This document shows, piece after piece, positions 6,571 through 8,631 of a stretch of DNA of 64,000 nt; within the stretch, counting starts at the first letter, position 1, and the number at the start of each line of letters is the position of its first letter. The stretch lies in the UHGV virus genome UHGV-0091736; one strand, 5' to 3'. Origin of the DNA: a virus. The notes under the pieces were generated by a model that saw only the letters and a list, made by a program, of their open reading frames with translations, did not search any database and was not told where the DNA came from. The translations under genes were made by a program, and so were the position numbers.

Positions 6571-7144
6571 TAATCCAATCTAGGTCTGATACTGCTGATT
6601 CAATAGTTGAGTCATTATACAGTAGATATGTTTTTCTCTGTTCTCCTTCAATATACGAGCGAGAATCTCCATCAAAAGAGCAACCATCTCTAAGAACTTG
6701 GACAACTTGGACATGGAAATTCTTTTCTAGTTCTCGTATCTCTGCATCAAAACCTCCGTCAGTAAACACGACAATATCATCCTGACCTAGTCCTTCTTGT
6801 TTGATGCTTTTTACAGCAAGGTTCCCCATATGATTGTTGCCAAACATAGGTTTTAAGAAATCTTCACTTGTGGAAATCATCAGATCTCTTACAGACTTCC
6901 CTCCCCATTCTGGTCTAGGTTTTTCTTTCCATTCACGATCTTCATAGCGTGCTAGAAAGTTCTCTAGAGGTATGCCTAGTGCAGCAGCAGCTACCTTATA
7001 CATCGGCTCCTTGAAGGATTTGGTTAAATAACCATGATGGTAAGAGTGTGCATTTACCCAAGCACTAGCTATCGTATCTTTACCACAACCCGGAGGTCCA
7101 TTGAGAATTACTACTAAGGGTTTAGACTCACTAATCATTTCCAC
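6533..7144 (-). CDS. P-loop nucleotide kinase (dNMP kinase-like)
   Basis: Walker A LNGPPGCGKDT near the N-terminus; GKDT is the variant I recall from T4 dNMP kinase. Confidence 0.55.
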   Translation of the reverse strand: MEMISESKPLVVILNGPPGCGKDTIASAWVNAHSYHHGYLTKSFKEPMYKVAAAALGIPLENFLARYEDREWKEKPRPEWGGKSVRDLMISTSEDFLKPMFGNNHMGNLAVKSIKQEGLGQDDIVVFTDGGFDAEIRELEKNFHVQVVQVLRDGCSFDGDSRSYIEGEQRKTYLLYNDSTIESAVSDLDWIIAQAQDDIYGRS

Positions 7145-7527
7145 TCTCCAGTGATTTCCATATCTGCTTTATCCCCTTTCTTGGTAAGGAGTATTGCTGG
7201 TTTATTCTTACTCTTCATATACTCAAACATGTGCATAGAACCTCTTGACTCTCCATCCCAAAAGATTACTACTGCATCTGCATATTCACCCATATCTACG
7301 TTCCGAAGTATCCCGGCCTTTTTGCCGAGAGTATTCCATGAAGGAATGAAACGTTTGATAGGTATATCATTATGCTTAGCAACGACTTCTCCGTGAAGGT
7401 CTGGACCTCTTGCACCACCTGACACAACTTCTGAAATCAGCTTGGGGATTTCCTCTGGAAGTAAAGCCCACATCTGAGTAAAAGAATGCCAGTCTATCGA
7501 CCGGCTTCCTGCGATTATTACTTTCAT
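7135..7527 (-). CDS. SLOG / DUF2493-like Rossmann-fold protein
   Basis: VIIAGSRS ... [10 protein letters not shown] ... GILRN ... [10 protein letters not shown] pattern. Confidence 0.45.
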
Positions 7528-8171
7528 GCAACCAACCCTTGAAACTCTTCTTTATCGAAGTGTTTTTCTACCACATATTCATACAGATCTTTTAACTCTG
7601 CATATCTGCGGTAGAATGTTCCGTGTGACATTCCAATGGTTTTCTGAATGTGATCATGGGGAATCCCCAAGAAGATCATTGAGAACATATTGGCTAACTT
7701 CTGAGTATCCATCGTATCACTTAAATCTTGGAAGAAGTAGAAGATACGGGACTCCATGAATGGGTCTCCAACAGAATCTTGCTTATCCATAGCAATCTCT
7801 AAAGGACTATCAACCATATCTGGAGTACGGAACATATCAGCCTCTGGAATAGAGTAGATACGACGGTCCCCCACAGTCTGCCTATTTGAACGTATAGACC
7901 AGATAATGTTCTTGACTCGATAAGTCATATGCTCTTGGTCTTTCTCATCCTCTAGGACTCTCTCATCCTGCTTAGCGAAGACAAATCTCCAAGCATTCAA
8001 GAGCACTTCCTGTGCCACATCTTCTGCTTCATGGTAATCTCTGATATCATACATGAAGAACTTGTGAACCACTTTCCAGTTCACCTTATAGAACTCTTCA
8101 TAGTTTGCGATATATTTAATAGGTATTCCATGAATTCGATATCTTGTAGGTGTTGTTTTCTTCGCCATCAT
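7524..8171 (-). CDS. Phage-encoded ECF-like sigma factor
   Basis: Region-2-like [13 protein letters not shown] and a C-terminal helix-turn-helix ([20 protein letters not shown]). Confidence 0.55.
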
Positions 8172-8190
8172 CTTTCCTTGTTGTTGGCTA

Positions 8191-8631
8191 TTACAAACAG
8201 ATATAGACAGGTATGTCCATCTGATTTAGATATTTAAACATTATAGGTCTTACCTGAGATTGGTAATCTAACCCTCCATTACTACAGCCTAAAGGAGTTA
8301 TCGCCAAAGATGTTATACCCTTATCTTTGTAGGTAAGTAATAACTTCTGTAAACCTTGTTCTATCCACTCTATCTCAGAACCATTTCTCCAATGTTTCTT
8401 GGTTGGAAAACACAGCCCCAATCTCCCATCGTTTAATCTCTGTAGGAGGAGTTGTCCAATCTGGAATCCAGAGTCGCAAGCAACCTTATATCTTTCAAAA
8501 GCTTCAGGGTATCTTCTTTTATACTCCTTAGCCACTCCTGCACCCATTACACCCACTAGGTTTACTGTGCAAGTTACTGTTTGAACGTCCACCGTGAATA
8601 CATTGGCTTTTCCTTCAAAAACAATAGCCAT
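8191..8631 (-). CDS. Macro domain protein (ADP-ribose binding/hydrolase family)
   Basis: [15 protein letters not shown] ... [18 protein letters not shown] motifs. Confidence 0.65.

Follow-up and report, generated by a model that had tools for sequence, protein, structure and literature searches.

The window that we analysed, that is, the whole of a 64,000-nucleotide stretch of the virus genome UHGV-0091736, encodes a small macrodomain protein which, by analogy with phage enzymes already characterised, most likely strips ADP-ribose from phage DNA and would thereby defeat the host defence DarTG2. DarTG is a widespread toxin-antitoxin defence. A single gene, coding for a phage sigma factor, separates the macro gene from that of a SLOG-type protein. 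Our explanation as a whole, which we favour with reasonable though not high confidence, is that the macro protein is an anti-DarT enzyme of the AdfM type, that the SLOG protein is a DprA-like, optional helper, and that both are products of accessory middle genes flanking the sigma factor gene.

Over the 2.7 kb around these genes, nucleotide identity to phiEco32, SU10, Bas90, and other kuraviruses (Gordonclarkvirinae) is 95–96%, and the gene order of the region is that of phiEco32 gp33–gp40; judged on this nucleotide comparison, the window is that of a phiEco32-like Kuravirus, a phage of E. coli. Positions 7135–8631 are filled exactly by three minus-strand open reading frames (ORFs), all of them real genes:

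8191–8631, minus strand: macro gene, 146 amino acids (aa), orthologue of phiEco32 gp37 (annotated “Appr-1-p processing enzyme family”)
7524–8171, minus strand: ECF (extracytoplasmic function)-like sigma factor gene, 215 aa, orthologue of phiEco32 gp36
7135–7527, minus strand: SLOG gene (YAcAr/DUF2493), 130 aa, orthologue of phiEco32 gp35 (annotated “putative GTP-binding protein”)

The original prediction, made from the letters alone, had placed macro and SLOG-like proteins beside a phage sigma factor, and domain or PHROG matches confirmed all three ORFs. It had also called the macro and SLOG genes adjacent, which holds in that both adjoin the sigma gene but not in the sense of being next to each other, as the sigma gene stands between them. 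The sigma ORF matches PHROG 1740 (“RNA polymerase sigma factor”, 8e-46), with a weak Sigma70_r2 match in Pfam, and is 98.6% identical to phiEco32 gp36, whose role as a sigma factor has been described (PMC8948821, PMC12276001); this gene is context and lies outside the ADP-ribose function discussed here.

An orphan macrodomain of the DarG2 type

The macro protein matches the Pfam Macro profile PF01661 with 37.4 bits against a cut-off of 22 (E-value 2.8e-9) and PHROG 335 at 4e-33, and more specific models all point to DarG, the antitoxin of the DarTG pair. The NCBIfam DarG antitoxin model reaches 6e-41, with its macro part only aligned and the next family at 0.06; the score of 140.7 bits lies under the 250-bit full-length cut-off because only the macro half of DarG is present. 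The PADLOC DarG model gives 4e-44, and the sequence matches in the PDB are DarG only, namely M. tuberculosis DarG (1e-26), the Thermosipho DarTG fusion, and T. aquaticus (Taq) DarG (1e-24).

Structure prediction leads to the same group. The AlphaFold2 model, which has a macro topology and a pLDDT (predicted local distance difference test) of 92.4, retrieves DarG at all of Foldseek ranks 1–4 (template modelling score, TM, of 0.91–0.94; E-values of 1e-14 to 1e-16) and superposes on Taq DarG with bound ADP-ribose at a TM of 0.94 and 1.5 Å; the next match, TARG1 (TM 0.82, E-value 1e-9), is five or more orders of magnitude behind. Two residues deserve particular attention: K78, in FPTKKHW, corresponds to K80 of Taq DarG and K78 of the PhiKZ protein gp104 (AdfM), while N24, in TVNLVGVMG, corresponds to N22 and N23, respectively, and both are invariant or nearly so across three homologue alignments. 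Identity to AdfM itself is 42% (E-value 4e-36), compared with about 23% to T4 Tk.4 (pairwise E-value 0.001). From the sequence comparisons and the model, we assign the macro protein to the DarG2-type macrodomains, no other class of macrodomain being as close to it as DarG. This specific assignment of a Kuravirus macro protein to the DarG2/AdfM type is, as a prediction, new.

At 146 aa, the protein consists of the macro domain only and has no C-terminal DarT-binding domain. No DarT or other ADP-ribosyltransferase gene lies beside the macro gene, and none is annotated in phiEco32 (a check based on annotation); we therefore regard it as coding for an orphan antitoxin-like enzyme. On the same grounds, a phage-borne DarTG or other toxin-antitoxin pair was ruled out.

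How such an enzyme would serve the phage can be outlined as follows. The host toxin DarT2 would ADP-ribosylate thymidines in single-stranded DNA (ssDNA) of the phage during replication; the macro pocket of the phage enzyme would bind the ADP-ribose and use N24 and K78 to hydrolyse the thymine-ribose bond; the unmodified template would be restored, and replication and packaging could go on. Optionally, the SLOG protein would, for example, target the hydrolase to ssDNA lesions or retain it there. This scheme leans on two precedents: PhiKZ AdfM removes the ADP-ribose added by DarT2 from TNTC oligonucleotides and is needed for phage growth on DarTG2 hosts (PMC13309987), and the T4 Tk.4 macrodomain is conditionally essential on DarTG2 hosts (bioRxiv 10.1101/2025.11.20.689424, HIDEN-SEQ preprint). 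We consider it likely that the macro protein has the activity of an AdfM-type enzyme reversing DarT2 thymidine ADP-ribosylation on phage ssDNA, and are somewhat less sure that this activity matters in vivo. The original prediction of a counter to ADP-ribosylation-based defence thereby gains support, both from the DarG2 type and from the similarity to AdfM.

A shortened DprA-like Rossmann domain

The second protein has a SLOG-type Rossmannoid fold. The YAcAr profile PF10686 gives the protein itself 26.6 bits, somewhat short of the gathering score of 28.2, but is present in most of the 798 homologues, and the protein matches PHROG 289 at 1e-24. The best PDB matches found by Foldseek are H. pylori DprA (HpDprA), S. 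pneumoniae DprA, and ShosA, with target-normalised TM values of 0.30–0.40, and some homologues also match the Pfam DprA profile PF02481. The protein is not a full DprA domain (about 205 residues), having 130 aa and lacking the central part; likewise, the family profile aligns with HpDprA weakly (E-value 0.02) and in two blocks (DprA residues ~45–97 and ~142–185), skipping the central segment.

Within these blocks, KVIIAGSR pairs with KVAIIGTR, VSGGARGVD with VSGGALGVD, and RNxxM...D with ARNRL, so that R9, R75, and N76 of the SLOG protein fall on R52, R143, and N144 of HpDprA (construct offset corrected), three residues essential for gripping one thymine base and the ssDNA backbone (Wang et al., PMC3950713). 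Among 41 diverse homologues, G7-S8-R9, SGGARGxD, W64, A71-G72, R75-N76, and S94/G96 are invariant. Of the two ssDNA-binding motifs of DprA, G-S/T/A-R has its counterpart in the invariant G7-S8-R9, while F/L/Y-x-x-R-N/D is matched in part, by the invariant R75-N76; its first position is taken by the invariant G72 instead of an aromatic or Leu residue. What is new here is this alignment-based mapping of the ssDNA-binding residues of DprA onto YAcAr.

Catalysis of the LOG type left no sign in our motif comparison: where LOG enzymes have PGGxGTxxE, the SLOG family has WDGxSRGTxHM, with the near-invariant M100 at the position of the Glu when the two are aligned by motif rather than by structural superposition. 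Domain profile searches (Pfam, NCBIfam) gave no match to a P-loop family. With the binding residues conserved and neither the LOG Glu nor a P-loop present, a binding role is favoured over catalysis. We thus describe the SLOG protein, from its alignments, as a shortened DprA-like Rossmann domain of the YAcAr/DUF2493 family, predicted to bind nucleotide or ssDNA; the crevice residues most likely hold one nucleotide moiety, which could be a flipped-out ssDNA base, as in DprA, or an ADP-ribose-derived ligand.

The family is mostly phage-borne, with 568 of 50,697 phage records (about 1%) as against 20 plasmid records. A plasmid leading-region origin was rejected, those 20 records being all from non-mobilizable plasmids. 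Our literature search for DUF2493 gave only ICP1 HelB and mentions in genome annotations. YAcAr/DUF2493 is a common uncharacterised phage domain, for which the DprA-type binding residues and the repeated fusion to DarG-type macro and DUF4326 domains now offer clues.

Macro and SLOG genes are accessory

The sigma factor was found in 99 related phage records, the macro protein (at least 80% identity) in 44, and the SLOG protein (at least 80% identity) in 69; the macro and SLOG genes are both accessory. The macro gene of the window occupies a variable slot between the spanin genes, which mark its upstream edge, and the sigma gene. Relatives present this slot in other states:

Empty: NJ01-like phage L008, Bas93, Bas92
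Small ORFs: Bas89, Bas86
Two small ORFs and a DUF4326 gene: L005, syntenic, with flanking proteins 71–81% identical

The variability of this slot between spanin and sigma genes, which DUF4326 can fill in place of macro, is a new observation. Counter-defence cargo typically shows the kind of patchy, slot-wise presence and absence seen for the macro gene. Bas92 and Bas86 lack SLOG as well as the macro gene, and Bas90 has both. The BASEL collection thus holds isolates infecting K-12 of every macro/SLOG genotype except macro-only, and its value as a natural test panel is a further new point.

L005, a metagenomic Kuravirus relative (SRR18474621), merits a description of its own: its DUF4326 gene (4764–5084, 8e-20) sits in the macro slot, a SIR2-family gene (744–1559, 4e-23) lies about 3 kb upstream of the spanins, and three NAD/ADP-ribose-linked domains (SIR2, DUF4326, SLOG) are found within 6 kb.

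Is the SLOG protein tied to the macro enzyme?

We compared the neighbourhoods of 83 viral SLOG loci, scoring a DarG-type macro gene within 6 kb, and of 80 viral macro loci; linkage is given as raw locus counts, and enrichment of macro near SLOG in qualitative terms only. Gene fusions speak for a functional link. Many proteins combine YAcAr and Macro domains, in the order SLOG-Macro (P0241-52, P0278, P0288) as well as in the reverse order (P0315), and Macro-DUF4326-SLOG triple fusions also exist (P0314, P0316); the fused SLOG domains share the invariant pocket residues with the SLOG protein of the window. The Erwinia jumbo phage Desertfox encodes a macro protein, gp152, directly followed by gp153 with a C-terminal YAcAr-like domain. 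Fusions in both domain orders, together with the triple fusion, thus uphold a functional connection between the two proteins. The association was already predicted in general terms in 2022, when viral fusions and neighbourhoods of SLOG, Macro, NADAR, and DUF4326 domains were reported (Iyer, Burroughs, Aravind 2022, PMC9503650). Because other phages fuse SLOG to DarG-type macro and DUF4326 domains, we infer that the SLOG protein is an optional helper in the macro pathway.

Syntenic metagenomic phages of about 170 kb show the SLOG domain being gained or lost in nature: at a locus following a Cauli_VI/RNase H-like gene, some encode a fusion of SLOG and macro (266 aa) and others macro alone (146 aa), with 90% identity over the macro part (L171/L172:6001–6801 vs. 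L168/L169).

Several points weigh against the explanation that we favour. A DarG-type macro gene lies within 6 kb in only 5 of the 83 viral SLOG loci, a minority pattern (the five include two SLOG-macro fusions, L015 and L040, and one adjacent pair, L066), and a SLOG gene is nearby in 3 of the 80 viral macro loci. Kuraviruses have gained and lost the two genes independently: Bas93 and Bas89 carry SLOG without macro, and L089 carries macro, at 82% identity and in an unrelated context, without SLOG. The dominant neighbours at the 83 SLOG loci are ThyX (22), 5′-3′ exonuclease (9), and MazG (9), followed by an intein-bearing protein (9), DUF3310 (7), and ribonucleotide reductase (RNR, 5), and ICP1 HelB is a fusion of SLOG to a superfamily 1B (SF1B) helicase. 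F140 of DprA, the stacking platform for the bound base, corresponds to an invariant Gly in the SLOG family. Finally, a literature search combining Kuravirus and DarTG found no published DarTG test of any Kuravirus, and the BASEL study of Gordonclarkvirinae left DarTG out of its tests (PMC11990801). A tight, obligatory SLOG-macro coupling was rejected on the low number of linked loci and on the independent presence of the two genes in kuraviruses.

These observations leave considerable room for a SLOG protein unrelated to the macro enzyme, that is, a nucleotide or ssDNA binder serving the phage in dNTP (deoxynucleoside triphosphate) supply, replication, or recombination. It might sense or carry nucleotides, for instance, or handle ssDNA as a minimal counterpart of DprA, and its proximity to the macro gene would be accidental in a variable region. 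Besides the neighbours and the helicase fusion just listed, other phages have SLOG beside a DNA polymerase or exonuclease gene, the start of a dNMP (deoxynucleoside monophosphate) kinase gene overlaps the SLOG stop by 10 nucleotides (nt) in the window, the ssDNA motifs of DprA are conserved, and kuraviruses without macro as well as 7-11-like phages keep SLOG. It is, however, hard to explain without a shared pathway why SLOG has been fused to DarG-type macro domains repeatedly, independently, and in both orders, and in triple fusions with DUF4326. The alternation of macro-only gene and SLOG-macro fusion at one locus of the 170-kb phages also counts against it; we lean away from this alternative while regarding it as the most serious one. 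Our own reading, based on these family comparisons, is that SLOG may be a versatile nucleotide- or ssDNA-binding module for which the DarG-type macrodomain is one recurrent partner; evidently, it also works without a macro partner. That it actually helps the macro enzyme in the window is an idea we advance tentatively and hold to be somewhat unlikely.

A more ambitious version of the helper idea, which we judge unlikely, would have YAcAr SLOG recognise lesions or ssDNA as part of a modular phage system that repairs ADP-ribosylated DNA. The SLOG domain would find ssDNA or ADP-ribosyl-thymidine by a DprA-like base-flipping pocket and clear DarT damage jointly with a DarG-type macrodomain, joined in some phages by a DUF4326 phosphatase-like domain, and kuraviruses would have split the parts into separate genes around the sigma gene. 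If true, a domain present in about 1% of sequenced phages would receive its first function, and counter-defence against DarT would involve several parts working together and not one enzyme only.

Alternatively, both proteins could act on soluble NAD or ADP-ribose derivatives rather than on DNA, be it cyclic ADPR (ADP-ribose) type signals, as in Thoeris, or toxic ADPr metabolites, with SLOG as a sponge or N-glycosidase and the macro protein processing the ribose-linked group, as modelled by Iyer et al. The family is the same Pfam family as in the YAcAr/DUF2493-Macro-NADAR-DUF4326 association described earlier (Burroughs 2015; PMC9503650), and we recovered the same fusions and neighbourhoods independently. 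Those authors predict action on soluble ADPr derivatives, whereas our evidence points to a DNA-directed, DarG-type partner and DprA-like residues: the macro protein is specifically of the DarG type, whose characterised members act on ADP-ribosylated DNA, and SLOG, which has the near-invariant Met in place of the LOG Glu, is nearer DprA and YpsA than ThsA or LOG in both sequence and structure. A soluble ligand for both proteins appears improbable to us. Since the SLOG protein resembles DprA more than the cADPR-sensing SLOG of ThsA, and since its commonest neighbours are dNTP-metabolism genes, an interference with soluble NAD-derived signalling, as first suggested for this locus, found no specific support.

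As an observation in its own right, in Aeromonas phage BUCT695 (L006:5053–5619 and 6987–7613) the SLOG gene is found two genes downstream of one for a nucleoside 2-deoxyribosyltransferase-like protein (weak Pfam match) and near an NMN (nicotinamide mononucleotide) transporter (PnuC-like) gene, with RNR, thioredoxin, and Dam genes close by.

A probable middle operon around the sigma factor gene

The remaining features of the gene run are as follows:

9989–9997, minus strand: TAATGTATA, matching the gp36 promoter consensus exactly and lying a short way upstream of the gp40 orthologue
9184–9930: gp40 orthologue, upstream of the spanins in the same run
8631–9150, minus strand: embedded o-spanin and i-spanin genes (PHROG 1152, PHROG 2425), directly upstream of macro
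6533–7144, minus strand: dNMP kinase gene (PHROG 139, 8e-46), nucleotide-metabolism neighbour

The genes are tightly packed: the spanin stop codon overlaps the macro ATG, the 19-nt gap between the macro and sigma genes has a ribosome-binding site AAGGAAAG, and the sigma stop and SLOG start share the overlap ATGA. The corresponding phiEco32 cluster, which comprises the DNA polymerase, nucleotide-metabolism genes, and gp36, belongs experimentally to the middle class, and gp36-dependent promoters with the consensus tAATGTAtA have been mapped upstream of phiEco32 genes 6, 13, 26, 40, 58, and 68 (PMC8948821). One-mismatch matches to this motif occur across the window at chance level (26 found vs. 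22 expected), so that it is only position and exactness that back the site at 9989–9997, a likely middle promoter, on this motif evidence, for the gp40, spanin, macro, sigma, SLOG, and dNMP kinase genes. Scans for sigma-70 and terminator consensus sequences over 6400–10700 gave nothing above shuffle expectation and, at that level, no convincing terminator between the 9989–9997 motif and the SLOG gene.

Given the 95% identity to phiEco32, the macro, sigma, and SLOG genes are most likely co-transcribed in the middle period with replication genes. Such timing is sensible for the macro protein, as the enzyme would repair ssDNA during replication, and co-expression with replication genes fits the scheme proposed above. 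The idea that both were early genes had to be given up in view of the middle-class phiEco32 orthologues and of the exact gp36-type motif upstream of the operon.

The putative promoter region also shows features worth recording. Positions 9931–10524 (about 600 bp) have no ORF of at least 60 aa, only two of 40 and 51 aa, and hold two exact TAATGTATA motifs in opposed orientation (9989–9997, minus strand, and 10179–10187, plus strand) with a hairpin (10014–10029) between them; this is probably the P40 middle-promoter region. At the 3′ end of the macro gene (8245–8240, minus strand), a perfect TATAAT about 70 nt upstream of the sigma start codon overlaps TAATGTTTA (8243–8235, minus strand), an 8-of-9 match to the gp36 consensus, with a poor -35 region; a sigma-70 promoter has been predicted inside phiEco32 gene 37 (PMC8948821). 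The macro gene may thus carry a promoter of the sigma gene that is wanting in macro-less relatives, as far as such motifs can tell.

Could the macro and SLOG proteins then regulate transcription, for example, by taking ADP-ribose off RNA polymerase or by adjusting gp36 activity in response to a nucleotide? Their physical linkage and apparent translational coupling with the sigma gene, along with the promoter-like motifs in the macro 3′ end and gene 37, would speak for it. The sigma factor is, nevertheless, present in all 99 relatives, as against about 44 for macro and 69 for SLOG, Bas92 and Bas86 do without both genes, and in phages beyond this group the two families show no link to sigma factors. 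Moreover, no ADP-ribosyltransferase is annotated in phiEco32, which also left the suggested remodelling of host proteins unsupported. We consider a regulatory role very improbable.

It is hardly credible that the PHROG and GenBank product names are right, by which gp35 would bind GTP and gp37 would be a phosphatase acting on Appr-1''-p, a by-product of tRNA splicing, since SLOG has a SLOG fold and no P-loop or G-motif, its sole GTPase-like PDB match covering 25 C-terminal residues (E-value 0.055), and since the macro protein groups, by fold and profiles, with DarG and not with Poa1p or MacroD-type phosphatases. Both labels, “GTP-binding domain” and “phosphatase”, were rejected, and two misleading database entries are thereby corrected.

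Further along the window, an HNH endonuclease gene (6100–6570, minus strand; PHROG 2255, 3e-31) sits between the dNMP kinase and 5′-3′ exonuclease genes, overlapping both; it is found at that position in Bas93 as well and not in phiEco32, Bas92, Bas86, or Bas89, and has the look of a homing endonuclease inserted as a mobile element. A Dam-type N6-adenine DNA methyltransferase gene (4777–5289, minus strand; Pfam Dam, 1.8e-48) lies downstream of the exonuclease gene, in a stretch for which the phiEco32 annotation lists HNH endonucleases and hypothetical proteins. According to the BASEL authors, Gordonclarkvirinae resist restriction-modification systems and may modify their own DNA (PMC11990801). 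The phiEco32 genome (NC_010324) also has, at 51.9–61.3 kb, an annotated cluster of gamma-glutamyl cyclotransferase, amidoligase, COOH-NH2 ligase, and glutamine amidotransferase.

Comparison with known systems

Macrodomain anti-DarT factors have been described only in 2025–2026, in jumbo phages and T4, and the macro protein of the window puts a closer DarG relative in the phiEco32/Kuravirus group. Its nearest functional model is AdfM (PhiKZ gp104 and chimallivirus homologues), with which it shares the layout (a macrodomain of the DarG2 type standing alone, about 150 aa long), the catalytic Asn and Lys, both phosphate-binding loops, and the lack of a DarT partner and of a DarT-binding domain. 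Unlike AdfM, it comes from a 77-kb podovirus without a phage nucleus, where it is the product of a middle-operon gene between spanin and sigma genes, present in fewer than half of the relatives, and its function is predicted. T4 Tk.4 is likewise a macrodomain encoded by an E. coli phage, and one that becomes necessary on DarTG2 hosts. The PTK(K)xW catalytic-loop motif, however, does not align between Tk.4 and the window protein, which is much closer to bacterial DarG. Indeed, the bacterial proteins (T. aquaticus DarG, 5M3E; M. tuberculosis DarG, 5M3I; Thermosipho DarTG, 7OMU) are the best matches, at 34–37% identity, and differ in having the DarT-binding domain and an adjacent darT.

The SLOG protein shares with DprA and the DprA-like domain of ShosA (PF02481; 4LJR, 3UQZ, 8ZVA) a Rossmann fold of the SLOG type and three conserved elements, the loops G-S/T-R and SGGAxGxD and the helix motif R-N, whose residues in HpDprA bind one base and the ssDNA backbone. 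Unlike DprA, it has neither the sterile alpha motif (SAM) nor the winged-helix domain, and Pfam puts its family in YAcAr, not in DprA.

Among the other phage countermeasures against DarT toxins, AdfA and AdfB are non-enzymatic. AdfN (T4 30.3, NADAR) is, like the macro protein in our proposal, a phage counter to a DarT toxin and an orphan copy of an antitoxin enzyme; it differs in having a NADAR fold and in its target, the guanine marks made by DarT1.

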